In this document: in pieces, positions 30,293 to 58,731 of the stretch
Position numbering within the stretch: the stretch's first letter is position 1
How the letters are laid out: each line of letters begins with the position of its first letter
Source of the DNA: Candidatus Doudnabacteria bacterium
GTDB lineage: Bacteria > Patescibacteriota > Doudnabacteria > UBA920
Length of the DNA: 64,000 nucleotides
Assembly (NCBI GenBank): GCA_020850635.1
Contig: JADZEH010000024.1
Span: 8,617 to 72,616 of the forward strand
Direction of reading: 5' to 3'
The notes under the pieces: generated by a model
What the model saw: the letters and a program-made list of their open reading frames with translations, nothing else
What the model was told of the DNA's origin: nothing
The model's database searches: none
Made by a program: the position numbers and the translations under genes

Positions 30293-30295
30293 ATA

Positions 30296-30621
30296 CTTTT
30301 AGCAAACTCGTAAGCCGAATTCTGTTTCTAAATAATCATCTATCTTGTCCTGCTGTTACCACCAGGATCATGCTGCCTACCAAATTTGGCATTGCACTCA
30401 GGTAAGGATTTGGCCGTTTCACCCTCTACATTACTGCAAAGGTTCACCCCGAAGGGTGCTCTTGGCTTGCGCCGCCAGCGTCACTGTTCGCACCTCTAAA
30501 ATTACTTTCGACGGGAATTACCCGCTACCCTTGTTAATGACTCTATAGTGGCCATCAACTAAGTGTTCGGACTTTCCTCTCTTAGCCTTGCGGTAAGAGC
30601 GATTATTCGATTTGCTAAAAG
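30296..30621 (-). ncRNA. rnpB: RNase P RNA (bacterial type; M1-like ribozyme)
   Basis: The minus strand carries GAGGAAAGUCCGAACAC (P4 5-prime strand), GGGUGAAACGG, ACAGAAUUCGGCUUAC (P4 3-prime strand). Terminal P1 pairing is CUUUUAGCAAAU / GUUUGCUAAAAG. No ORF. About 326 nt. Confidence 0.8.
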
Positions 30622-41320: not shown

Positions 41321-41349
41321 TTGACATCAGCAGAAATTTATAGCATAAT
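41321..41349 (+). promoter_or_regulatory. Consensus-like sigma70 promoter TTGACA-17-CATAAT for the high-GC ORF
   Basis: -35 at 41321-41326, -10 at 41344-41349. AAGGAGGAG Shine-Dalgarno at 41386-41394. Confidence 0.5.
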
Positions 41350-41398
41350 ACTCAATCGACAGACACCAAATTCTGACGAGCTTCTAAGGAGGAGACCG

Positions 41399-41932
41399 AT
41401 GACTTTTGACCGCAGAGATAACGAACCATATCTCAAGCTCAACGACCAACTATACCAACGAACGTTAAGCGGAAGTATGGCAACAAACCATGCCCTGTTT
41501 CACTCCATCGTCATAGAGGCGATGAAGATGTTCGCAGACGTGCCCGGATGGGAGGAAAGAACTGGAGCGTACTGGGCAATTGCGGGCATCTACACCGAAG
41601 AGTCTTACGCTGCGGGCTACGCGGGTAACAACGGTTACTCAGCAGGTGAACAATTTCGATTGCGATGCAAAGAAAAGCTGGCACGTTTGGCGTCGCACCG
41701 ACATCACTTGAGCAGTGCCGAAAGCCGGAACCCTGATCGGCTCCAATTCGGAGGAGCGATCCGTACCAACTGGTACATGCTCTCGATGTCGGGACTACCC
41801 GAAGACGGCGACGAAATCTGCGTGCTCAAATTCGCTGTGGAGCGCTCCTGGCTCACCGACGACCAGGCAAAGCAGATCGCCGAGATCAGCGACAACTGGC
41901 TTTGGAAAGAGTTCTCTGAATTGCTCTTCTAG
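41399..41932 (+). CDS. Hypothetical protein, compositionally foreign (~53% GC), inserted within a tRNA cluster
   Basis: ATG at 41399 after a strong SD. The ORF-track start at 41321 is a TTG that coincides with the -35 box. 177 aa, MTFDRRDNEPYLKLNDQLYQRTLSGS... No recognised domain. Confidence 0.55.
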   Translation: MTFDRRDNEPYLKLNDQLYQRTLSGSMATNHALFHSIVIEAMKMFADVPGWEERTGAYWAIAGIYTEESYAAGYAGNNGYSAGEQFRLRCKEKLARLASHRHHLSSAESRNPDRLQFGGAIRTNWYMLSMSGLPEDGDEICVLKFAVERSWLTDDQAKQIAEISDNWLWKEFSELLF

Positions 41933-41962
41933 CAGACTGCGCCACAACGGCGCGACGTTCCA

Positions 41963-42001
41963 CCCTGCCCCTCCATCTCGGAGCGGCAGGGGATTTTTTT
42001 A
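41963..42001 (+). terminator. Intrinsic terminator (ccctgcc...ggcaggg, T7) for the high-GC ORF
   Basis: GC-rich stem with a nested ctcc/ggag inner stem, followed by seven Ts. Confidence 0.7.
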
Positions 42002-42125: not shown

Positions 42126-42201
42126 TGGAGCCGTTTTGCGGGATCGAACCGCAGACCTTCTCCTTACCATGGAGATGCTCTACCAACTGAGCTAAAACGG
42201 C
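42126..42201 (-). tRNA. tRNA-Thr (anticodon GGU)
   Basis: Reverse complement GCCGUUUUAGCUCAGUUGGUAGAGCAUCUCCAUGGUAAGGAGA...GGUUCGAUCCC...AAACGGCUCCA. Immediately adjacent to tRNA-Tyr. Confidence 0.9.
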
Positions 42202-46341: not shown

Positions 46342-47150
46342 CCATACAGGAGACCTTAAGTCTTTATTCAGATGCTGAATCTGATTTATTACTCTCTTTC
46401 GTACTAAAAAAGTCGAGAGATTTTTTGTATATCCATCCAGAAAAAAAGCTTACAACAAAACAACTAAAAGCTTTTAAGTCTCTAGTTGCACGACGCAAAA
46501 AAGGTGAGCCTGTAGCTTACCTATTGAGATATAAAGATTTCTTTGGATTGAAATTCAAAGTTACCAAAGATACGTTAGTTCCTCGTCCTGAAACCGAATG
46601 GGTTGTGGATCATATCCTCAATCAAAAACTTTCAAACAACACTTCAATTCTCGATTTAGGAACCGGCTCTGGATGTATCGCGATCAGCATAAAAAAGAAC
46701 ACTCCTAAACTTTCTGTAACTGCAAGCGATGTTTCGAAAAAAGCTTTACTTGTAGCAAAACAAAACGCCCGATCCCACAAAACTAAAATTAACTTTGTTC
46801 ACTCAAACTTACTTAGTAACTTATCAAACAAACATTTTGATATTATTATCGCTAACCTTCCTTACGGCTGGAATGTTTGGAAAAATAATAGCTCTATCGA
46901 AGCAAAAAGTTTAAAGTTTGAACCACAATTAGCACTATTTACCAAAGAAAACGGCTTATACCTCTATCGCCTTTTACTGCAACAAGTTTCAAAACTCAAA
47001 AAACAACCTAGCGTAATCTATTTAGAATTCGATCCACGACAAAAAACTAAACTCGCTAAACTTATAAAAACAATACTACCTAAAGCCAAAACTATTTTTC
47101 ATAAAGATTTAGCTGGGTTGTGGCGATACGTAGAAATAAAACGAGGCTAG
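46338..47150 (+). CDS. prmC: Release factor glutamine methyltransferase PrmC (HemK)
   Basis: SAM-binding LDLGTGSGCIAISI and IANLPYGW (NPPY-type) motif. Confidence 0.85.
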   Translation: MTIQETLSLYSDAESDLLLSFVLKKSRDFLYIHPEKKLTTKQLKAFKSLVARRKKGEPVAYLLRYKDFFGLKFKVTKDTLVPRPETEWVVDHILNQKLSNNTSILDLGTGSGCIAISIKKNTPKLSVTASDVSKKALLVAKQNARSHKTKINFVHSNLLSNLSNKHFDIIIANLPYGWNVWKNNSSIEAKSLKFEPQLALFTKENGLYLYRLLLQQVSKLKKQPSVIYLEFDPRQKTKLAKLIKTILPKAKTIFHKDLAGLWRYVEIKRG

Positions 47151-47602
47151 CCAAAATGCGCTAACCTCATGCTCTGACCCGGGTAACACTCGTCAAGTCC
47201 CCGAAGCATGAGCCCAGTCCTTGGATGAGCGGGGTCCATTGAGATTCTATGACGGACCACAGCCGCCTTTTTCTCGTCCTGTCCAAGATAGTGATACATC
47301 ACGTTCGATACCTGAATGATCATCTTAACTATTTCTCGCTTCCCTTCTTGGGGAAAGCGCGAGATAACAGCCTTAATGCTTCGCTCGCTCGGTATCATCT
47401 TCAACGCAAAAGCTGCATAGGTAATCGGCGCGGTCCTCCCTTCGCTCCCGATCACATAGTACGCTTTGTTCCGCCCTCGCAAGGTTATCTGATATTCGAA
47501 CCTCACGGACACGCCAGACCTGACAAACTCCGAAAAACCATGCAGGTCTCCAGACTCCTTCTGACACAGCTGAGAAAACACCGAGACCACCCTTCTTGCC
47601 AT
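47147..47602 (-). CDS. Hypothetical protein, compositionally foreign (~52% GC)
   Basis: ATG at 47600-47602 (minus) preceded by GGTAGGAGGT SD. The ORF track extends to 47635. 151 aa, MARRVVSVFSQLCQKESGDL... Putative promoter on minus at 47630-47658 (TTGACA, then TATGCT-like -10). Its stop overlaps the convergent prmC stop within GCTAGC. Confidence 0.5.
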   Translation of the reverse strand: MARRVVSVFSQLCQKESGDLHGFSEFVRSGVSVRFEYQITLRGRNKAYYVIGSEGRTAPITYAAFALKMIPSERSIKAVISRFPQEGKREIVKMIIQVSNVMYHYLGQDEKKAAVVRHRISMDPAHPRTGLMLRGLDECYPGQSMRLAHFG

Positions 47603-47670
47603 CACACACCTCCTACCCATTGATGACATTAGCATACTCGAACATCAAAGTTTGTCAAAATCTACACAAC

Positions 47671-50934: not shown

Positions 50935-51001
50935 GTGCGATTTTTGATATACTATAATGGTTATATCTCTCCATTGTGCGCACGCAATTTTACTATAAAA
51001 A

Positions 51002-54000
51002 ATGACTTTTACCCACCTCCATTGCCATACGCACTACTCCCTCCTCGACGGATTATCTAAAATTGGTCCGTTAGTTGATGAAGCCAAAAAGCTGGGAATG
51101 ACTAGCTTGGCTATGACCGATCATGGAGTGATGTATGGAGCTATTGAGTTTTACAACACCTGTCTTGAAGCTGGCATCAAACCAATTATCGGGATGGAAA
51201 GTTACGTCGCCCCTCGAACTAGATTTGATAAAGAAGGAAAAACCGACGCCGACTATTTTCACATCACCTTACTAGCCAAAAACGATACTGGCTACAAAAA
51301 TTTAATCCAACTTACTACCAAAGCCCATACTGAAGGGTTTTACTATAAACCCCGAGTCGACAAAGAACTACTAACACTTCATGCTGAAGGGTTAATCGCG
51401 CTGTCGGGATGCCAACGTGGGGAAGTTGCTCGAGCTGTAATGGAAAGTGAAACCAAAGGCAAAGAAATACTTGAGCTCTATATTAAGATTTTTGGGACAA
51501 ACAACTTCTTTATAGAAATTCAACGAAACGCTGAAGATCCCAACGACCAAAAACGCGAAACCGAACTCAATCGTCGCCTAATGGCTCTTGCAAAAGAGTA
51601 CAAGCTCTCACTGGTAGCCACAGGTGACTGTCATTATATTCACCCTGAAGACAAAGAAGCTCAAGATGTTTTGGTATGTATTGGCACTGGTCGAACTGTG
51701 CAAGACGAAAATCGCTTAGACATGCGCAGTCATGGTTTATGGCTGAGATCGAGCGTGGAAATGGCCGAACTGTTTAAAGATGTTCCGGAAGCAATAACCA
51801 ACACCCAAAAAGTCGCGGACCTCTGTCAGCTCGATATTCCGATTAATCAAAGATATTTCGCCAACGTTAAACTTCCGTCGAACACTAATGCAGAAGAGTT
51901 TCTCACCGTTGAAGTCGAAACTCAAGTTCATAAAATGTACGCTGACAAAAACGGCGTACTCCCCGATGAAATTCGTGAACGTGTTGATTACGAATTAGGA
52001 ATTATCAAACCCAAAGGTTTTGCCCCATATTTTATTATGGTGGCAGATATTGTAAAAGGGGCACACTCAATTGGTGCGATTACTAACACTCGTGGTTCAG
52101 CTGCGGGTAGTATTGTCGGACATGTTTTAGGGATCAGCGCAATTGACCCAATCTATTATCAGTTGCCTTTTGAACGTTTTTTAACGGCCTCTCGTCCAAC
52201 CCCACCTGATGTTGATTTGGACATTTCCGATACACGTCGTGATGAAACTATTGAATGGATTACGGAACAGTATGGGCGTGATAAAGTCGCGCAGATTATT
52301 ACTTTTGGAACAATGATGGCGCGCGCCGCCGTCCGCGATGTCGGTCGGGCTCTAGCCGTCCCTTATGGTAAATGTGATCGCATCGCCAAGATGATCCCTA
52401 TTGGTAAACAAGGTTTTCAAATGACGCTGAGCAAGGCTTTAGAAATGAACCCTGAGCTCAAGCAGGTCTACAACACCGATGCCGAAACCAAAAAAGTTGT
52501 CGACGTCGCCCGAAAACTAGAAGGTGGCGCACGCCACGCTTCCATTCACGCCGCGGCTCTAGCCATCACCCCAACTCCCCTCACCGACTATACCCCACTT
52601 CAAAAAGAACCTGATGGCGAACGCATGATTACGCAATACGACATGTACTCTCTTGATGTTGGTGCCGACAGTCACGCTATTGGTGTAATCAAAATGGACT
52701 TACTCGGAATACGCAACTTGAGTATTTTGGAAGAAGCCTTGAAGTTAGTGAAAGACAGGCACGGTGTTACGATTGATATTAACAAGCTTCCTCAACCCGA
52801 TCCCAAAACCATGAAACTCTTGTCCGATGGTCACACCTTTGGCGTGTTTCAACTTGGCTCATCGGGTATGACTCGTTATCTCAAAGAGCTAAAGCCACAA
52901 AACATTTTTGATATCATGGCCATGATCGCTCTGTATCGTCCGGGGCCAATGGGAATTATTCCAGAATATATTTCGCGCAGGCATAATCCACGAGCCATTC
53001 AATTTTTTGATCCGCGGATGAAAGATTACCTCGAACGCTCTTTGGGACTATTGGTCTACCAAGAAGATGTTTTACTCACAGCAATTAACATCGCTGGCTA
53101 CTCATGGGAAGAAGCGGACAAACTCCGCAAAGCTATGGGTAAAAAAATCCCTGAAGAAATGACTAAGCAAAAAGTGAAGTTCACCGAAGGCTGTGTTAAC
53201 GGTGGGATGCGCCCCGATCGTGCTGAGGAGTTGTTTAAACTCATCGAACCGTTTGCCGCGTATGGGTTTGGTAAAGCCCATGCCGCCAGTTACGCCCAAG
53301 TCTCCTATCAAACCGCCTATATGAAAGCCAATTATCCCGTGGAGTTCATGGCTGCGGTTATGACCGCCGAAAGCGGTAACGAAGACAAGATCTACGCTGC
53401 AGTAGAAGAATGTAAAGCTCTGGGTATAAAAGTTTTACCGCCAGATGTGAACGAATCACAAGGCGACTTTACCGTGGTTGATGATCATACAATTCGTTTT
53501 GGCATGAACGCCATCAAAAATTTAGGAACAGACGTTGTCGCTAAGATTATCGAATGCAACGAGGGCGGTAAAAAACATTTCGAATCAATAGAAGACTTTT
53601 TAGTGCGCTGTCATGCCAAAAACTTTAACAAGCGTTCATGGGAAGCCTTAGTTAAAGCTGGGGCGTTAGACAAGTTCGACGAACGAGGTAAACTCCTCGC
53701 CAACACCGATTACGTTTTAGATTTTGTGCGTGACCATTTTAAATCTGAGAACTCTGGACAAAATTCCCTGTTTGGCGCATCGCTGAAAATTGGCAAACTT
53801 CGCTTACAAGATGCACCACCGGCTACTCAAGAAGAGATGTTGTTATGGGAAAAGGAACATCTTAATTTTTATATCTCCGCGCACCCACTCGATAACTACA
53901 AATCTGTACTCAAAACTTTCCCCACCATCCGCGAAGTTCAAGCGCTGGAAGGAGAACAACTTGTGACTATCGGTGGAATTATTTCCAAAATGAAACGAAC

Positions 54001-54466
54001 TTTAACCAAGAAGAATGAGCCGATGGCGTTCTTCACTTTAGAAGACTCGACTGGATCACTCGAAGTACTAGTCTTTCCTAAAGTTATGCCAATCGCTTTA
54101 CCGTTCTTAGAACTGGATAAAATTGTTCAAGTTACGGGACGACTGTCAGACAAAGACGGCGAAGCCAAAGTTATCGCCAATGAACTCCAACAAATGCCCA
54201 ACGATGAACTTTATTTCATGGCATTATCTGAAATGGAAAAAAATAAGCAAGTTGTGATTCACATGATCAACGCCAATAACCCTGAAGTCTTAAACAAAAT
54301 CAAAGATGTGATTGTGATGTATCCTGGTAATGCCCAAGTTTATCTTAGTGTAGGAAACGGCAACAACTCCAAGAAGATCAAGACAAAATCACAGGTTCGC
54401 ATTAGCCTCGACCTTATCACTGCGCTCAAAGAAATTCCAGAAATAACCATGGTTAGCCAAAACTAG
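51002..54466 (+). CDS. dnaE: DNA polymerase III alpha subunit (DnaE-type)
   Basis: 1154 aa. PHP domain HLHCHTHYSLLDG at the N-terminus, polymerase core, OB fold. Confidence 0.97.
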   Translation: MTFTHLHCHTHYSLLDGLSKIGPLVDEAKKLGMTSLAMTDHGVMYGAIEFYNTCLEAGIKPIIGMESYVAPRTRFDKEGKTDADYFHITLLAKNDTGYKNLIQLTTKAHTEGFYYKPRVDKELLTLHAEGLIALSGCQRGEVARAVMESETKGKEILELYIKIFGTNNFFIEIQRNAEDPNDQKRETELNRRLMALAKEYKLSLVATGDCHYIHPEDKEAQDVLVCIGTGRTVQDENRLDMRSHGLWLRSSVEMAELFKDVPEAITNTQKVADLCQLDIPINQRYFANVKLPSNTNAEEFLTVEVETQVHKMYADKNGVLPDEIRERVDYELGIIKPKGFAPYFIMVADIVKGAHSIGAITNTRGSAAGSIVGHVLGISAIDPIYYQLPFERFLTASRPTPPDVDLDISDTRRDETIEWITEQYGRDKVAQIITFGTMMARAAVRDVGRALAVPYGKCDRIAKMIPIGKQGFQMTLSKALEMNPELKQVYNTDAETKKVVDVARKLEGGARHASIHAAALAITPTPLTDYTPLQKEPDGERMITQYDMYSLDVGADSHAIGVIKMDLLGIRNLSILEEALKLVKDRHGVTIDINKLPQPDPKTMKLLSDGHTFGVFQLGSSGMTRYLKELKPQNIFDIMAMIALYRPGPMGIIPEYISRRHNPRAIQFFDPRMKDYLERSLGLLVYQEDVLLTAINIAGYSWEEADKLRKAMGKKIPEEMTKQKVKFTEGCVNGGMRPDRAEELFKLIEPFAAYGFGKAHAASYAQVSYQTAYMKANYPVEFMAAVMTAESGNEDKIYAAVEECKALGIKVLPPDVNESQGDFTVVDDHTIRFGMNAIKNLGTDVVAKIIECNEGGKKHFESIEDFLVRCHAKNFNKRSWEALVKAGALDKFDERGKLLANTDYVLDFVRDHFKSENSGQNSLFGASLKIGKLRLQDAPPATQEEMLLWEKEHLNFYISAHPLDNYKSVLKTFPTIREVQALEGEQLVTIGGIISKMKRTLTKKNEPMAFFTLEDSTGSLEVLVFPKVMPIALPFLELDKIVQVTGRLSDKDGEAKVIANELQQMPNDELYFMALSEMEKNKQVVIHMINANNPEVLNKIKDVIVMYPGNAQVYLSVGNGNNSKKIKTKSQVRISLDLITALKEIPEITMVSQN

Positions 54467-54487
54467 AGCTTGTGGTATACTGAAGGC

Positions 54488-54742
54488 AATTTGCACTAAA
54501 GAGAATTGGCTTTCCCCTGGTCCAGCTAGTTACCCTCGCCTTTAGGAACATGTTTGAGACAATCGGCCCCACATACTGGAGAGTAGTTACTCCAGACATT
54601 CCCCACCTAAGAGCCAATTCTCACAATCGGTCAGTAGTGAATACCAGTCCAACAAGGAGGACTATCAAGCGCCTAGGCGCTTACCCCAAGTAGCACACCC
54701 AGTCACAGCGTTCCCGCGCAATGGTGTTGCTTGGGTTTTTTT
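54488..54742 (+). ncRNA. Candidate structured small RNA (~255 nt) with extended -10 promoter and intrinsic terminator; family unknown
   Basis: TGgTATACT extended -10 at 54473-54481. No ORF of 60 aa or more on this strand. Long-range stem GAGAAUUGGCU (54502-54512) pairs with AGCCAAUUCUC (54610-54620). Internal hairpins (cuggag/cuccag; GCGCCUAGGCGC). Terminal stem cccaag/cttggg followed by T7. Confidence 0.35.
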
Positions 54743-54744
54743 AT

Positions 54745-54773
54745 TTGACAAAAAGGGGTAATAGTCCTAGAAT
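54745..54773 (+). promoter_or_regulatory. Consensus-like sigma70 promoter TTGACA-17-TAGAAT
   Basis: -35 at 54745-54750, -10 at 54768-54773. GGAGAAAG Shine-Dalgarno before the ATG at 54855. Confidence 0.45.
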
Positions 54774-54854
54774 GAGCAAAGTTTCAACTAGAAGCACGGC
54801 TCATACAGCGTGTTTATCACCCAACGCCCAGCCGAAGCGAATTGGAGAAAGCTC

Positions 54855-55346
54855 ATGAAGAGTCTCCTTTCGATGCTGTCCGTTGCAATCGTCTTCGCTT
54901 TCGTGTCACCTCTGGTGGCCGACCTCGAGGCGAAAGCGAGTTCGACCAACAAATCGCCGCCGAGCATTACCATCACGGGTCAGCGCATCCATTACGGATC
55001 TGACGATGTGAACACGATGCCGATGGCCGACCAAACGCCGCTCGAGACGATCACCACGTCCGCCAGCATGGACAAGGTTTTCGCTCCACCGGCGATCAAC
55101 AGTTCGAAGATGACCGGGTCCACCGACGGGAAATCGGTGAACGATCCGGCCGCCACGCTCGCGGGAACCGACCCGTACATTGTTCTGTACATCAACGTCG
55201 CCATTCAACGGACGATGATACCGGCAATGGCAGGATGCAACGAGGCGATTTTGCGCGCACCCCGCAAGTCGGCACGTTCGGGTCCCGAGATCCAACGAGC
55301 CTGGCGCCCGTTCGCCGGCCTCGATCTCAACTCCTCGAAGCCCTGA
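54855..55346 (+). CDS. Small secreted hypothetical protein, high GC (~58%)
   Basis: ATG at 54855 (the ORF track opens at 54810). Signal peptide MKSLLSMLSVAIVFAFVSPLVADLEAKA. 163 aa. The antisense ORFs here are high-GC artefacts. Confidence 0.5.
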   Translation: MKSLLSMLSVAIVFAFVSPLVADLEAKASSTNKSPPSITITGQRIHYGSDDVNTMPMADQTPLETITTSASMDKVFAPPAINSSKMTGSTDGKSVNDPAATLAGTDPYIVLYINVAIQRTMIPAMAGCNEAILRAPRKSARSGPEIQRAWRPFAGLDLNSSKP

Positions 55347-55393
55347 AACTTGTTCGCAAAAGCGAACACTCACGACCTCCTCACGGAGGGACC

Positions 55394-55433
55394 CCGCTCT
55401 CGACATCTACGGATGTCGGAGCGGTCTTTTTTT
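55394..55433 (+). terminator. Intrinsic terminator (ccgctc-t-cgacatc / gatgtcggagcgg, T7)
   Basis: About 13-bp stem with one bulge and a tetraloop, followed by seven Ts. Confidence 0.65.
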
Positions 55434-55442
55434 ATTTAAAGA

Positions 55443-55471
55443 TTGACATTTAGCATTATTTTCTGTAGATT
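55443..55471 (+). promoter_or_regulatory. Sigma70-like promoter TTGACA-17-TAGATT
   Basis: -35 at 55443-55448 (the ORF-track TTG start is this box), -10 at 55466-55471. AAGGAGGA Shine-Dalgarno at 55482-55489. Confidence 0.45.
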
Positions 55472-55496
55472 GATATATCGCAAGGAGGAACGCGAC

Positions 55497-56012
55497 ATGA
55501 ACTCACTCCGCCATGTTTTGCTTTATGCAATTGTCATCCTGTTCATCTCGGTTATTGCCGCTATCCTGTACTGGCTATTCGGCATTCAACCGATCAACAC
55601 AGTCTACGGAACTATTGTAGTTTTCGTAGTTTGTTTTCTCTGGCTCTCTTGGGAAAATTTTGTGATTTCACCAAGAAGAATTCAAATAATCCTGCAAATC
55701 TTAGCCATGGATGGCGGAGAAATGACAACCTTAGAAATCATCGAGCAGGGCAAGGGCGAACTAAGCAGGGCTGCTATCCACTCCGAGTTAAATTACCTGA
55801 TTGAGAAAGATCTTGTGAGTAAACGTATCGAGGAACGAACCACACCATATATTCCGCTCAGCTACTTCAAGATCACACCCAACGGAAGACGAGAACAACA
55901 CGCCAAGATTACTTCGAAGTTGAGACTTAGCTGGCAACGTACGTGGAGCCAGTCCGGACAGACAATGTCCGGTCTTTTTTTATCCTCAAGATTTTTGACA
56001 CAAACAGTTTGA
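55497..56012 (+). CDS. Membrane-anchored winged-helix (PadR/MarR-like) protein
   Basis: ATG at 55497. Two N-terminal TM helices, then ILQILAMDGGEMTTLEIIE...SELNYLIEKDLVSKRIEE...YFKITPNGRRE resembling PadR-type wHTH. An intrinsic terminator lies inside the last ~20 codons. Confidence 0.5.
   Translation: MNSLRHVLLYAIVILFISVIAAILYWLFGIQPINTVYGTIVVFVVCFLWLSWENFVISPRRIQIILQILAMDGGEMTTLEIIEQGKGELSRAAIHSELNYLIEKDLVSKRIEERTTPYIPLSYFKITPNGRREQHAKITSKLRLSWQRTWSQSGQTMSGLFLSSRFLTQTV
55954..55981 (+). terminator. Intrinsic terminator (ccggaca/tgtccgg, T7) embedded in the 3-prime end of the wHTH ORF
   Basis: 7-bp stem, 5-nt loop, TTTTTTT. Confidence 0.6.
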
Positions 56013-56023
56013 GCATCTATAAT
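55995..56023 (+). promoter_or_regulatory. Perfect consensus sigma70 promoter TTGACA-17-TATAAT
   Basis: -35 at 55995-56000, -10 at 56018-56023. Overlaps the stop codon (56010-56012) of the upstream ORF. Confidence 0.5.
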
Positions 56024-56029
56024 GGTCGC

Positions 56030-56378
56030 GGTTGTGAACTCGGAAGACAAGCACGTCCGGGCACTTACAATCATGCATTAAAGGAACCGATGCAAGGGAA
56101 TCAGAACTGGCTGAATACGCTTTCACCGCTTCAGCAATTTCTGGTCCGAGTTGCCCCTTACGTTGGGAAGTTCCACACTTTAAAAATCCCAAGATGCACC
56201 CACCCAAATCGGTAGAGCCGTGATGGGCAATGACCACCGGTTTTCCCTAGGAAGATAAGGTAGCTCTAAATCAGCGCCAATCGTGACCATGAAACTTTTG
56301 ACCTAGGCACAACAACAAGGAGAATACGAGACAGAAAACCCACCGTTCAGATTCAGAGCTTCTGAACGGTCTTTTTTA
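56030..56378 (+). ncRNA. About 350-nt transcription unit: either a non-coding RNA or mRNA for a 41-aa peptide (MQGNQNWLNTLSPLQQFLVRVAPYVGKFHTLKIPRCTHPNR, 56090-56215) with a 125-nt 3-prime UTR
   Basis: Defined by the perfect promoter upstream and the 10-bp-stem terminator at 56342-56377. Only a weak SD (AAAGGA) before the ATG at 56090. Confidence 0.3.
56342..56377 (+). terminator. Intrinsic terminator (accgttcaga/tctgaacggt, T6)
   Basis: Perfect 10-bp stem, 9-nt loop, TTTTTT. Confidence 0.7.
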
Positions 56379-56385
56379 TCCCCGG

Positions 56386-56414
56386 TTGATTTTCAAAAGC
56401 TTATTTACTATACT
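56386..56414 (+). promoter_or_regulatory. Sigma70-like promoter TTGATT-17-TATACT
   Basis: -35 at 56386-56391, -10 at 56409-56414. Confidence 0.4.
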
Positions 56415-56420
56415 ATTAAT

Positions 56421-56578
56421 AGATTCTGCAAGCGCTGATCCGACTACCACTCGGGAAGTTTGCCCAAATTAAATACAAAAGGTCGCACCATAAGATGCGA
56501 CGAACTGGGACGGAAACGTCTATAAAAAGACCCCAGCATATTGTTCTGAACAAGTTCAGAGCAGCATGCTGGGTTTTT
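56421..56578 (+). ncRNA. Candidate small RNA (~158 nt) between promoter and bidirectional terminator
   Basis: No ORF. Internal hairpin gucgca/ugcgac. Ends in a compound hairpin cccagcat...atgctggg followed by T5. Confidence 0.3.
56532..56578. terminator. Bidirectional compound hairpin terminator (cccagcat...ctgaac/gttcag...atgctggg)
   Basis: 8-bp outer stem plus 6-bp inner stem. T-run on plus and on minus (ctttttat). Confidence 0.55.
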
Positions 56579-56584
56579 GAGAGA

Positions 56585-56854
56585 TCATTTGCACAAAAAG
56601 TAAATGAAGAGGATGGCAACTGAGGCTATGAGAATCAACAGGTTTTCTTTTTGGAAGAGCCACCGGAATGCCCCAAGGCTCATAACGCCAAAGCCAGTAA
56701 GCAAATAAACGCCACCTTCGTGTAACTCGCGATTGAAATCGCAAATCACTCTTCCTTCTGGAAGTAGTCCATACCCATGTATGGCAATACAACATCCGAT
56801 AAGAAAAAGTGAGACGAACACAACTTTCTTTGCACAGATCCACACAAACTTCAT
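56585..56854 (-). CDS. Small hypothetical membrane protein (2 TM), divergent from thrS
   Basis: 89 aa, MKFVWICAKKVVFVSLFLIGCCIAIHGYGLL... GGGGGA SD 6 nt upstream. The larger overlapping ORF (56556-56888) is in another frame. Confidence 0.4.
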   Translation of the reverse strand: MKFVWICAKKVVFVSLFLIGCCIAIHGYGLLPEGRVICDFNRELHEGGVYLLTGFGVMSLGAFRWLFQKENLLILIASVAILFIYFLCK

Positions 56855-56916
56855 GACAAATCCCCCTTTGTCGAAAGTCTATAAGCATATCATTACGAAA
56901 TTAAATTAGCAAAATT

Positions 56917-58731
56917 ATGAACCAAGACGAACAACTTTCAAATATTCGCCACTCATTGGCTCACTTACTTGCATCAAGCGTGCTTGAAGTTTTCCCTGAC
57001 GCCAAACTTGGTGTTGGTCCAGTAATAGACAATGGCTTTTATTACGATTTTCAATTACCACGTCCTTTAACTCCCGATGACCTCAAAGACATTGAGAAAA
57101 AGATGAAAAAGCTCGTGGGTAAAAAATTAGCGTTTGAACGCCAAGAACTTTCTACCACTGAGGCCACAAAGTTTTTTAAAGACGCTGATCAACCTTTCAA
57201 GCTCGATCTAATTAGCGCCTTAGAAAAATTTGGAACGACTAGTGCTGATGAAATTCTTAACGCTGAGCAAGCAACTTCAAGTGAGCAAAGTGGTGGAGTT
57301 GATACAGTCTCACTTTACAAAACGGGTGAATTTACAGACCTTTGCCGTGGCGGTCACGTGGAGAACACATCGGAAATTGATGCAGATAGTTTTAAGCTTG
57401 ATAAGATTGCTGGAGCCTACTGGCGTGGTGATGAAAAAAATCCTCAACTCACTCGTATTTACGGACTAGCTTTTGAAAACAAAGAAGCGCTTGATGAATA
57501 CTTGCACATGCGCGAAGAAGCTGAAAAGCGCGACCACAAAAAACTTGGACGTGAATTAAAACTCTTTACCATTTCTGACTTAGTCGGTGCTGGCCTGCCT
57601 TTGATTCAACCAAAAGGTATGGTTATCCGCAAAACGATTGAAGATTATTTATGGTCACTCCACGCTGATAAAGGTTACTCACGAGTCTGGACACCTCATA
57701 TTGCGAAAGAGGCTTTATACGAAACTTCTGGTCACGCCGCTAAATTCGGTGATGAACTTTTCCGTGTACAAGGAAAAGAGGACAAATTCATCATGAAGCC
57801 CATGAACTGCCCACATCACATGCAACTCTACGCGGATAATCAATTCTCGTATCGTGATATGCCTGTTCGTTACTTTGAACCCGCTACAGTCTATCGTGAT
57901 GAAAAATCAGGACAACTTGGTGGATTGACTCGCGTTCGAAGCATTACGCAAGACGATGGTCATTTATTCTGTCGCGTCTCACAAATCGAACAAGAAGTTA
58001 GTATGATCGTTTCTGTCATCACCGAATTTTATAGCTCCGTAGGAATGTTAGATAGCTATTGGGTAAGTCTTTCGGTTCGTGGTGAAGATAAATCTAAATA
58101 CTTGGGTGAGGATAGTGTCTGGGAAATGGCTGAAAGTAGCCTCGAACAAGCTGCCAAAGCGAATAATTTGCCTTACAAACGAATGGTCGGTGAAGCCGCG
58201 TTCTATGGACCAAAGCTCGACTTTATGTTTAAAGATTCGATTGGCCGTGAGTGGCAATTAGCTACCATTCAATGTGACTTTAACCTACCCGCACGGTTTG
58301 AATTAGCTTACAAAAATGAAAAAGGCGAAGATGAACAACCAGTTGTTATTCACCGTGCTATTTCAGGCTCACTCGAGCGCTTTATGGGAATTCTAATCGA
58401 ACATTATGCTGGAGCGTTCCCAGTGTGGTTAGCACCTGTCCAAGCTTCTGTCTTACCAATCTCAGACAAACATTTAGATTACGCTCAAGACGTAAAACAA
58501 CAACTTCACGAAGCTGGTATCCGAGTTGAACTCGATGACCGTAGTGAATCAATCGGGAAGAAAATTCGTGAAGCCACCAAGCAAAAAGTTCCTTACATGC
58601 TCGTTGTTGGTGACAAAGAAGTCGAAGCTGGTAAAGTCGCCATTCGAAATTTGGCCGGTGATGATCTTGGCACAATGACAATCCCAGACTTGATCAACAA
58701 ACTCCAACAAGAAATTACAACTAAAGCCTAA
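56917..58731 (+). CDS. thrS: Threonine--tRNA ligase
   Basis: 604 aa. Class II aaRS motifs and a ThrRS catalytic core (HRAISGSLERFMGILIEHYAG), C-terminal anticodon-binding domain. Confidence 0.97.
   Translation: MNQDEQLSNIRHSLAHLLASSVLEVFPDAKLGVGPVIDNGFYYDFQLPRPLTPDDLKDIEKKMKKLVGKKLAFERQELSTTEATKFFKDADQPFKLDLISALEKFGTTSADEILNAEQATSSEQSGGVDTVSLYKTGEFTDLCRGGHVENTSEIDADSFKLDKIAGAYWRGDEKNPQLTRIYGLAFENKEALDEYLHMREEAEKRDHKKLGRELKLFTISDLVGAGLPLIQPKGMVIRKTIEDYLWSLHADKGYSRVWTPHIAKEALYETSGHAAKFGDELFRVQGKEDKFIMKPMNCPHHMQLYADNQFSYRDMPVRYFEPATVYRDEKSGQLGGLTRVRSITQDDGHLFCRVSQIEQEVSMIVSVITEFYSSVGMLDSYWVSLSVRGEDKSKYLGEDSVWEMAESSLEQAAKANNLPYKRMVGEAAFYGPKLDFMFKDSIGREWQLATIQCDFNLPARFELAYKNEKGEDEQPVVIHRAISGSLERFMGILIEHYAGAFPVWLAPVQASVLPISDKHLDYAQDVKQQLHEAGIRVELDDRSESIGKKIREATKQKVPYMLVVGDKEVEAGKVAIRNLAGDDLGTMTIPDLINKLQQEITTKA

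Follow-up and report, generated by a model that had tools for sequence, protein, structure and literature searches.

A stretch of 64,000 nucleotides (nt) from a Candidatus Doudnabacteria genome, referred to here as the window, was analyzed at the junction between dnaE and thrS, where the two genes are separated by a gap of 2450 bases (54467-56916). Our results indicate, with a probability that we estimate at about 75%, that this interval is a strain-variable stack of self-contained transcription units in a conserved dnaE-(T-box)-thrS junction. Comparison of strains and related lineages showed that cassettes have been gained or lost singly upstream of the T-box, and that the unit preceding thrS is a native T-box attenuator of this gene, in a stripped-down form. 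The arrangement dnaE-T-box-thrS is ancestral. According to the proposed model, cassettes carrying each a near-consensus sigma-70 promoter and an intrinsic terminator would have accumulated upstream of the T-box, with their boundaries at terminator tails.

Layout of the junction and its variation among strains

The features of the interval are listed in Table 1. The initial annotation had described two plus-strand protein genes, a small minus-strand gene at the right edge and five units with near-consensus sigma-70 promoters and strong terminators, three of them without a convincing open reading frame (ORF), all between dnaE and thrS, and this layout held throughout. The five quoted promoter strings are present on the plus strand; the three ORFs (named here sec163, wHTH171, and mem89) exist; units 1, 4, and 5 contain no conserved ORF; and a stable hairpin with a T-run closes each unit, with folding energies of -19.2, -23.9, -14.0, -14.9, and -26.8 kcal/mol for units 1 to 5, respectively, and z-scores from -2.7 to -6.9. 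The modular architecture was also confirmed: the units are autonomous, promoter hexamers are kept while spacers diverge, and whole units are present or absent among strains. In promoter 2, for instance, 13 of the 17 spacer bases differ between strains and the hexamers are kept. A consensus scan detected 13 promoter-like sites in 53500-58000, versus 5.7±2.3 in shuffled sequences, and three of the 26 sites of the whole window matching at least 10 of 12 positions fall within 1.25 kb of the interval.

Table 1. Anchors, predicted units and regulatory elements of the dnaE-thrS junction, in window coordinates (aa, amino acids; CDS, coding sequence; SD, Shine-Dalgarno sequence; T1 to T4, terminators of units 1 to 4)
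Feature	Position	Strand	Description
dnaE (DNA polymerase III alpha)	51002-54466	+	1154-aa ORF, stop TAG; left anchor of the junction
Unit 1	54454-54745	+	Extended -10 promoter TGgTATACT (54473-54481), non-coding RNA candidate of ~260 nt, T1
Unit 2	54745-55434	+	Promoter TTGACA-17-TAGAAT, 80-nt leader, sec163 CDS, T2
sec163	54855-55346	+	Secreted-type 163-aa ORF; N-terminal signal-peptide-like helix
Unit 3	55443-56012	+	Promoter TTGACA-17-TAGATT, SD AAGGAGG, wHTH171 CDS (55497-56012), T3
Unit 4	55995-56380	+	Promoter TTGACA-17-TATAAT (consensus), structured non-coding RNA candidate of ~350 nt (~56030-56379), T4
Unit 5 (thrS T-box leader)	56386-56578	+	Promoter TTGATT-17-TATACT, Stem I, Stem III, antiterminator, terminator
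Stem I	56428-56463	+	Specifier loop CUACCAC (56444-56450); Thr codon ACC (56446-56448), then A
Stem III	56482-56501	+	Purine-flanked: AAAAG-GUCGCA..UGCGAC-GAA (56477-56504)
Antiterminator helix A1	56505-56509/56532-56536	+	
Antiterminator bulge	56510-56517	+	ACGGAAAC
Antiterminator helix A2	56518-56521/56528-56531	+	
mem89	56585-56854	-	89-aa small membrane protein ORF, SD AAGGGGGA
thrS (threonyl-tRNA synthetase)	56917-58731	+	604-aa ORF; Pfam tRNA_SAD/tRNA-synt_2b/HGTP_anticodon; right anchor
Promoters of units 1 to 5	54472-54481; 54745-54773; 55443-55471; 55995-56023; 56386-56414	+	TG-extended TATACT in unit 1
Terminators	T1 54686-54744; T2 55394-55434; T3 55954-55982; T4 tail to 56380; T-box terminator 56530-56578	+	
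14-nt direct repeat	55422-55435; 55970-55983; 56367-56380	+	CGGTCTTTTTTTAT at the tails of T2, T3, and T4 (one T fewer in T4)

The two plus-strand proteins of the interval are identical to NCBI entries MCC7356534.1 and MCC7356535.1 (IT410_02890 and IT410_02895) of a Candidatus Doudnabacteria bacterium metagenome-assembled genome. The same arrangement was assembled independently from DRR783843, SRR14932697, SRR2135036, ERZ27258492, ERZ27258496, and ERZ15185638, and variant forms of the interval came from SRR10571211 and SRR34753047, in all some nine independent samples. Relatives are designated by loci from metagenome and genome scans (L numbers) and by protein clusters (P numbers). Locus L002 (from DRR783843) spans dnaE to thrS with 98.2% identity to the window; its dnaE, on which the Pfam PHP/DNA_pol3_alpha domains were found, is identical to that of the window. 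As a separate observation, comparison of 51000-51600 with L002 revealed a second divergence cluster where dnaE begins, with 43 differences over these 600 nt; the 2.6 kb that follow are almost identical, so that dnaE has recombination tracts on either side.

Variation in the content of the junction was observed both within the species of the window and between lineages. Within the species, unit 1 is missing from L088, where the terminator-1 counterpart and promoter 2 come directly after the dnaE stop codon, and L089 lacks the whole wHTH171 cassette, with the junction lying exactly in the 14-nt repeat CGGTCTTTTTTTAT. The wHTH171 cassette is also absent from L171, L172, and L175, and unit 4 from L171 and L172. 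L171 (ThrS 92% identical) contains unit 1, a different secreted ORF of 166 aa with a GC content at third codon positions (GC3) of 0.87, the T-box, and an unrelated 128-aa membrane ORF on the minus strand. L175, which resembles L171, carries unit 1, the sec163 homologue P0127 (GC3 0.78), unit 4, and the T-box, and lacks unit 3 and mem89. In L172 (ThrS 78%) a promoter, a 160-aa secreted ORF (GC3 0.84), a terminator, and the T-box were found, and L173 (ThrS 76%) and L091 (ThrS 61%) contain only the T-box between dnaE and thrS. Homology between the window and L171 is confined to four stretches: the end of dnaE with the unit-1 promoter, terminator 1 with promoter 2, the T-box, at 83%, and the 43 nt immediately preceding thrS. 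This pattern of presence and absence indicated that every unit except the T-box is individually dispensable and that the boundaries lie at terminator tails. The motif CGGTCTTTTTT(T)AT, with which terminators 2, 3, and 4 end, is present at no other site of the window. It had been initially reported that the interval lacks integrase, insertion sequence (IS) elements and flanking repeats: no integrase or transposase ORF was indeed found, but the 14-nt repeat occurs at three terminator tails. In a wider set of Patescibacteria, dnaE is located directly upstream of thrS in 19 of 80 genome loci, none of which carries a homologue of the interval proteins.

Conserved, structured and non-coding character of units 1 and 4

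Homologues of unit 1 were found in L002, L171, and L175. Its long-range helix joins 54501-54511 and 54612-54622 (GAGAAUUGGCU/AGCCAAUUCUC) and is kept with two compensatory pairs, reading AGGAUUGG/CCAAUCCU in L171 and GGUU/AACC in L175. The hairpin CUGGA/UCCAG is also kept, the terminator stem CCAAG/CUUGG is replaced by CCAGG/CCUGG, and the TG-extended -10 element is conserved, while strain indels, which are not multiples of three, break every reading frame. Unit 4 has a homologue in L175 with blocks of perfect identity (GCUGAAUACGCUUUCACCGCUUCAGC, AAGAUGCACCCA, and AGCCGUGAUGGGC), including a 26-mer at 56108-56133; of the pairs predicted by RNAalifold, 97 in all, 13 show compensatory changes. 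In promoter 4 the spacer has undergone substitutions and the two hexamers are intact. These results showed that units 1 and 4 are non-coding, conserved and structured. Two small ORFs were considered as genes and rejected: the 47-aa ORF of unit 1, which is disrupted by frame-breaking indels in relatives, and the 41-aa ORF of unit 4 (start at 56090), which has a premature stop codon in L089 and no ATG in L175.

Known RNA families were also considered. The scan of the three RNA units against Rfam gave no match for any of them, unit 5 being recognized instead as a T-box by a custom model (see below); this held at gathering and at permissive thresholds in the window, L091, and L175. Transfer-messenger RNA (tmRNA), signal recognition particle (SRP) RNA, 6S RNA, and RNase P RNA were discarded as identities for these two units after negative ARAGORN and Rfam results, RNase P RNA being located at 30295-30618. 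The complementarity of units 1 and 4 to 54 translation-initiation regions of the window was no better than that of shuffled controls.

An alternative is that units 1 and 4 are decayed protein cassettes, that is, pseudogenes or spacers that keep a promoter and a terminator and are not functional RNAs. This would fit the SD-like AAGGAG found upstream of the terminator in both units, the z-score of only -1.07 obtained when unit 4 is folded alone, the dispensability of both units in some strains, and the lack of an Rfam family and of target complementarity above shuffled controls. We nevertheless consider it unlikely: the perfect blocks of unit 4, including the 26-mer, persist in a lineage whose sec gene has a synonymous divergence (dS) of ~1, together with the 13 compensatory pairs; compensatory changes have preserved the unit-1 long-range helix in three lineages; and the promoter hexamers are kept while the spacers have changed. 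Both units are thus regarded as new clade-restricted structured small RNA (sRNA) candidates, and they are probably transcribed independently.

Unit 5, a stripped-down T-box leader of thrS

In L091, the nearest relative from the metagenome scan (DnaE 74% and ThrS 61% identical), only 262 nt separate dnaE from thrS, and they are homologous to unit 5. The L091 and window RNAs have in common a 6-bp outer stem, an asymmetric xxxGA/GA internal loop, and an inner stem of 5 bp capped by the 7-nt loop CUACCA(C/A), followed by an A-rich linker, a purine-flanked hairpin, and the string CUGGG-A(C/U)GGAA(A/C)C-GUCU…AGAC-CCCAG. The CCCAG segment (56532-56536) can pair either with CUGGG, forming an antiterminator of -9.0 kcal/mol, or within the terminator (-26.8 kcal/mol), which is followed by a U-run. 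At the base of Stem I the xxxGA/GA loop, as a sequence pattern only, is invariant in eight related leaders (GCUGA/(G)AA in the window and GCUGA/GA in L171). Specifier loops of relatives are CUACCAA, CCACCAA, or ACUACGAAC, with the Thr codons ACC or ACG, and the purines flanking Stem III correspond to the motif defined as RRRxG-Stem III-AA (PMC7583486). Both tRNA-Thr genes of the window have a discriminator U and an encoded CCA, so that the GGA of the bulge can pair with U73-C74-C75 of tRNA-Thr.

Following the established T-box mechanism, the anticodon of uncharged tRNA-Thr(GGU), whose gene lies at 42126-42201, would pair with the ACC specifier in the terminal loop of the short Stem I, and the 3' end of the tRNA would pair with the (C/U)GGA of the bulge. 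With this pairing the weak antiterminator (CUGGG/CCCAG and GUCU/AGAC) would be stabilized in its competition with the stronger terminator, and the polymerase would then read on into thrS. In the strain of the window, read-through would also have to cross 340 nt antisense to mem89.

Evidence for the conservation of this leader was obtained with a covariance model, R1, for which five distant leaders from metagenomes were used (L130, L143, L149, L147, and L129), none of them from the clade of the window. A MAFFT alignment of both T-box subgroups was not structure-consistent, and the model was therefore derived from one subgroup. In the window, R1 gave a sole significant match, at 56428-56537 on the plus strand and over its full length (37.1 bits, E = 1.2e-6). 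It also gave 31 matches in other loci, including L171, L172, L173, L091, and 26 further leaders, all of them on the thrS strand and upstream of thrS. In the resulting alignment 91.7% of the cells are paired, 19 of the 22 pairs have changed on both sides, all four modelled Stem III pairs show compensatory changes, and the covariation score is 0.595, versus 0.05-0.14 with slid partners. In L175, L172, L173, and L091, homologous leaders end at a distance of 45-60 nt from the thrS ATG; that of the window, also on the thrS strand, lies 340 nt upstream of thrS, with mem89 on the opposite strand between them. Beyond these relatives, GG(G)UGGAACC occurs 80-220 nt upstream of thrS in ~33 of 109 loci from many Patescibacteria groups, each with a CUACCAA-type loop further upstream. 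These results showed that unit 5 is a native T-box attenuator of thrS.

The form of this T-box is a reduced one. No distal Stem I platform was found, Stem I ending in the 7-nt specifier loop after 5 bp, nor was any Stem II or IIA/B pseudoknot, Stem I and Stem III being joined by 18 unpaired A-rich nt (56464-56481). Stem II has been considered essential where Stem I is truncated, and glycine T-boxes can dispense with it by virtue of an all-G-C codon-anticodon duplex (PMC7583486). The gathering score of the Rfam T-box model RF00230 (93 bits) was reached in none of 13 related loci. RF00230 aligned to Stem III and the antiterminator of L143 with 18.3 bits, against that threshold of 93, which indicates that the discriminator half is recognizably T-box and that Stem I is not. 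The bulge is UGGAACC in distant leaders, A-UGGAACC in L091, ACGGAACC (A-CGGAACC) in L172 and L173, and ACGGAAAC (A-CGGAAAC) in the window, L171, and L175. Since the C variant is common to five lineages and, in the form identical to that of the window, lies 45 nt from the thrS ATG in L175, it probably represents a functional clade-specific form and not decay.

The gene mem89 is convergent with the T-box leader, whose terminator has T-runs on both strands. Its promoter-like site, TTGAAA-16-CATAAT (56941-56914, minus strand), overlaps the thrS start codon, CATAAT being the reverse complement of ATTATG. No homologue of mem89 is present in relatives: L171 has at this place its own, unrelated membrane ORF, and L175, L172, L173, and L091 have none. 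Given that no further promoter-like site was detected by the consensus scan on the plus strand from the T-box terminator to thrS, expression of thrS in the window should depend on read-through antisense to mem89. The mem89 mRNA and the T-box read-through transcript would be antisense to each other over ~330 nt.

It could be argued from this arrangement that unit 5 is a degenerate T-box relic that no longer senses tRNA, its only roles now being those of a two-way terminator for mem89 and of a leader that is constitutive or leaky. Two normally conserved positions of the bulge are changed (ACGGAAAC instead of UGGAACC), the leader is separated from thrS by the inserted mem89, and the hairpin has T-runs on both strands, as such a relic would lead one to expect. 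We find it rather unlikely, nonetheless, because the C variant is common to the window, L171, L175, L172, and L173; in L175, L172, and L173 the C-variant leader adjoins thrS with nothing between them; the leader retains its specifier loop, Stem III, and the two antiterminator helices, with compensatory changes; and thrS has no other plus-strand promoter-like site downstream of the terminator.

Some further observations concern thrS leaders and structured RNAs of these lineages. In the more distant relatives L094 (2667-2760) and L092 (1030-1310), dnaE is followed by a bidirectional terminator (AAAAAGAGCGACCCCAGGG…CCCUGGGGUUUU in L094) and by a small membrane-protein gene on the minus strand, an arrangement that echoes mem89 and the T-box terminator. 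The spacers between the T-box terminator and thrS of several groundwater Patescibacteria hold short inverted repeats, GTCATCCCGA…GGGATC…GGATGAC, resembling miniature mobile repeats (L130 8110-8190, L106 8235-8350, L143 8105-8185, L149 7825-7860, and L129 5890-6010), and insertions seem to be generally frequent in this spacer. The thrS leaders of L056, L146, L132, L039, L117, and L124 show another Patescibacteria T-box form, in which AGAGAUUG…CUAAUCU closes a junction with a CUACCAA specifier hairpin and a second hairpin, and which scores below the Rfam gathering score. Finally, the class A RNase P RNA of the window (minus strand) obtained 108.6 bits, barely above the Rfam gathering score of 100, which illustrates how much the lineage's structured RNAs have diverged from curated models. 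T-boxes are listed by TBDB and earlier surveys in Firmicutes, Actinobacteria, Chloroflexi, Deinococcus-Thermus, and a few other groups, and in the literature searched no paper was found linking T-boxes to the Candidate Phyla Radiation (CPR) or Patescibacteria.

Orphan genes, base composition and comparison with known systems

The GC content (guanine plus cytosine) of the interval had been described as rising to ~50-58%. A real peak, of 59-61%, was found at 54900-55350, which corresponds to sec163, but the rise is not island-wide: the rest of the interval has 43-49%, the window mean being 41% and parts of dnaE reaching 48-50%. Recalculation by gene gave the same picture. With a GC content of 0.60 and a GC3 of 0.75, versus 0.348±0.036 for the 46 other genes of the window, sec163 is a strong outlier (z = 11), but deviant composition does not extend across the interval, GC3 being 0.49 in wHTH171 and 0.47 in mem89.

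The N-terminus of Sec163, MKSLLSMLSVAIVFAFVSPLVA…, resembles a signal peptide by inspection, and the protein is probably exported, acting at the cell surface or on a host. Its plus frame is open in all alleles, indels are multiples of three, and GC3 is higher than GC1 and GC2 (first and second codon positions). In the diverged N-terminal 50 codons dS is 0.79 and the nonsynonymous divergence (dN) 0.18, a dN/dS of ~0.23, and the centre is nearly saturated between alleles (dS 1.26, dN 0.94). A 166-aa ORF on the minus strand over sec163, which some pipelines call as the gene, was ruled out by the GC3 periodicity, the open plus frame, and the dN below dS in that frame. Alleles that are 90% and 45% identical occur in strains with flanks ~99% identical, others being more distant; the 5' leader, the signal peptide, and the C-terminal 17 residues (QRAWRPFAGLDLNSSKP) are conserved across alleles, and the recombination tracts around the gene are mosaic. 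This pattern is the signature of recombinational import of diverged alleles. A diversity-generating retroelement (DGR) or silent cassettes were considered as the source of the variation and rejected, as no part of sec163 occurs a second time in the window. In the 64 kb no DGR template, reverse transcriptase, silent cassettes, or within-gene repeats were found, and the absence of a template copy, together with alleles that differ by many indels and by all substitution types, makes a DGR unlikely.

A word-indexed search of 5.8 billion protein clusters with sec163 retrieved three clusters, and a HMMER profile search of 1.84 billion representatives retrieved only P0002, P0125, and P0127, along with two repetitive, evidently spurious proteins. 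P0127 is located in the sec slot of the dnaE-thrS junction of L175. The secreted ORFs of L171 and L172 match sec163 in position, promoter type, size, signal peptide, and GC3. These results showed that the sec163 family is clade-restricted, very fast-evolving, of ~160 aa, and persistently GC3-rich (0.75-0.87 when the L171 and L172 ORFs are included). Such a family, without any visible donor, argues against a single recent transfer. Structure prediction with AlphaFold gave unusable models both for Sec163 (three-sequence alignment, mean predicted local distance difference test score, pLDDT, of 46) and for WHTH171 (single sequence, pLDDT 51).

The product of wHTH171 has two predicted N-terminal transmembrane (TM) helices followed by a winged-helix-like region. 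Searches of Pfam, NCBIfam, PHROGs, and PADLOC with the three interval proteins gave only sub-threshold winged-helix matches, all for this protein: Penicillinase_R (E 0.005, 17.6 versus 22.6 bits), PadR PF03551 (E 0.068, 13.6 versus 27 bits), and the Csa3 winged helix-turn-helix (wHTH; E 1.6e-4). The initial assignment as a PadR-like 2-TM protein was accordingly not supported, the PadR score lying below its cut-off and the best Pfam winged-helix match, itself sub-threshold, being Penicillinase_R. A single 90% cluster among the 5.8 billion contained this protein. Its ORF crosses its own terminator hairpin and T-run (55954-55982) and the -35 element of promoter 4 before reaching its stop codon at 56010-56012, and this reading through T3 suggests a recent rearrangement at the terminator tail. 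If T3 were efficient, most wHTH171 transcripts would lack a stop codon. The genes wHTH171, for a predicted membrane-anchored winged-helix protein, and mem89 are strain-level accessory genes.

Two other compositional outliers of the window were observed outside the junction. A second self-contained GC-rich cassette (41321-41990, plus strand) lies between tRNA-Thr(UGU) and tRNA-Tyr, with a promoter TTGACA-17-CATAAT, an SD AAGGAGG, and a 177-aa orphan ORF (41399-41932, plus strand; GC 0.53, GC3 0.64, z = 7.9) that has no Pfam, PHROG, or PADLOC match; its terminator ends in GGGGATTTTTTTATCC, resembling the tails of terminators 3 and 4. The third outlier is a 162-aa orphan ORF on the minus strand (47147-47635; GC 0.51, GC3 0.60, z = 7.0), also without family match, the end of which overlaps that of a methyltransferase-like neighbour by 4 nt.

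A stronger version of the cassette explanation would be that the junction is a dedicated cassette-exchange site, where promoter-to-terminator modules enter and leave by recombination at the shared tail CGGTCTTTTTTTAT. Among these modules would be a hypervariable secreted protein, its high GC3 maintained by some process specific to the locus or by a gene pool of its own, and two structured RNAs of a new type, beside a T-box that seems to work with neither distal platform nor Stem II, the auxiliary tRNA contacts held to be necessary in current structural models. Taken as a whole, this version is one to which we give little credence at present.

It is also improbable that the interval is a foreign genomic island recently acquired from a high-GC donor, such as a host, and inserted between dnaE and thrS, as had been initially proposed. 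The contrast in GC3 between sec163 and the other window genes is what such an island would show, the three interval proteins are orphans without Pfam or NCBIfam family, and genes of this kind are missing between dnaE and thrS in the more distant L173 and L091 as well as in the 19 genome loci. Strong deviation is limited, however, to one gene, and unit 5 is native and ancestral. The GC3-rich secreted ORFs of 160-166 aa that relatives carry in the same slot are beyond BLAST recognition or have a dS of ~1, which makes them old and not ameliorated. The profile search of 1.84 billion representatives yielded no member outside the small sec family, no integrase, IS element, or tRNA-adjacent attachment site was found, and there was no match in phage or plasmid collections (blastn) or in viral collections (scan of viral contigs with the unit-4 26-mer). 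The acquisition of the interval as a single island was thus not sustained, no donor having been found, and the argument built on Saccharibacteria and their actinobacterial hosts does not apply to a Candidatus Doudnabacteria genome. The interval genes do occur in part at the dnaE-thrS junction of relatives with similar composition, a sec-family gene (GC3 0.78-0.87), unit 1, unit 4, and the T-box being spread over L171, L172, and L175, but not all units do. Engineered cassettes or an assembly chimera, which the near-consensus promoters, tidy unit boundaries, and repeated terminator tails might evoke, are for practical purposes refuted by the independent assemblies from the eight listed samples, with their natural single-nucleotide polymorphisms, indels, and cassette differences, by the diverged versions in related lineages, and by the lack of marker, vector, or plasmid matches.

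Several points weigh against the interpretation of the interval as a strain-variable stack of units next to a working T-box. The Sec proteins of L171 and L172 show no detectable similarity to Sec163 by BLASTP, and proof that one family occupies one slot is limited to the window alleles, L088, P0125, and L175/P0127. The sustained high GC3 of the sec genes is not accounted for by a stack of cassettes. As regards the RNAs, promoters, terminators, and RNA ends are predicted from sequence, units 1 and 4 would rest on two to four effectively independent sequences, and the covariation of the T-box was counted on a model-fitted alignment. RF00230 gave no match at E<=10 in the window or L091. In addition, the bulge of the window clade has C where a near-universal U pairs with A76 of the tRNA, the window having also AAC for ACC, and this may mean reduced or altered tRNA sensing.

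Such genomes are thought to be streamlined, and yet a housekeeping junction holds here cassettes that differ among strains otherwise 98-100% identical. If the exchange-site explanation were true, the junction would represent, in reduced episymbiont genomes, a modular accessory locus of a new kind, together with a minimal natural T-box. The fast-evolving secreted orphan Sec163 is a candidate host-interaction factor, and a GC3 of 0.75-0.87 in a genome of GC3 0.35, across lineages and without a detectable donor, constitutes an unexplained compositional phenomenon; its case warns against equating GC islands with recent transfer. Many Patescibacteria carry a thrS T-box that is not recognized by the curated Rfam model, and the form of the window, which several metagenome lineages also have, possesses neither a distal Stem I platform nor Stem II. 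A natural T-box having only codon-anticodon and 3'-end contacts would be a very small tRNA sensor and would test directly the model in which Stem II is essential (PMC7583486).

With RF00230, unit 5 shares its position as leader of thrS, an ACC followed by A in the Stem I loop, a purine-flanked Stem III, two antiterminator helices around a bulge, and a stronger competing intrinsic terminator; the internal loop at the base of Stem I resembles the GA or kink-turn type in sequence pattern, and the bulge resembles the GGA-ACC type. It differs from it in a Stem I of only ~11 bp with the specifier in the terminal 7-nt loop and no elbow-binding distal platform, in the lack of Stem II and IIA/B, and in a bulge of 8 nt that starts with A-C instead of U in the window clade. 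Actinobacterial ileS T-boxes with an "ultrashort" Stem I, a class reviewed in PMC7583486, are said to have been described by Sherwood, Grundy and Henkin in 2015. These also have a naturally truncated Stem I, the specifier in a terminal hairpin loop, and no elbow-binding distal motif, but they keep Stem II and IIA/B and act on translation, whereas unit 5 has no Stem II and ends in a transcription terminator. The glyQS T-boxes, in turn, resemble unit 5 in lacking Stem II, in the linker that joins Stem I to Stem III and the antiterminator, and in their transcriptional control; they keep, however, a long Stem I with an elbow platform and an all-G-C codon-anticodon duplex, whereas unit 5 has the codon ACC and no platform.

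At the level of the whole interval, the closest parallel is with the phage "morons" of Hendrix and Juhala, reportedly autonomous promoter-ORF-terminator units of deviant composition located between conserved genes. The units of the interval have likewise their own sigma-70-type promoter and factor-independent terminator, are wedged between conserved genes, include a gene of deviant composition (sec163), and are present or absent among strains. The interval is flanked, by contrast, by chromosomal dnaE and thrS and not by a prophage, there being no phage genes, no PHROG hit for the three interval proteins and no phage match for the interval, and two of its units encode RNAs. Another parallel is with hypervariable or contingency surface-protein loci, which recombination between conserved flanks maintains. 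No silent copies, in-gene repeats, or DGR parts were seen in the 64-kb window; what sec163 has in common with these loci are its conserved ends, its divergent centre (45% identity between strains with flanks ~99% identical), and its mosaic tracts.

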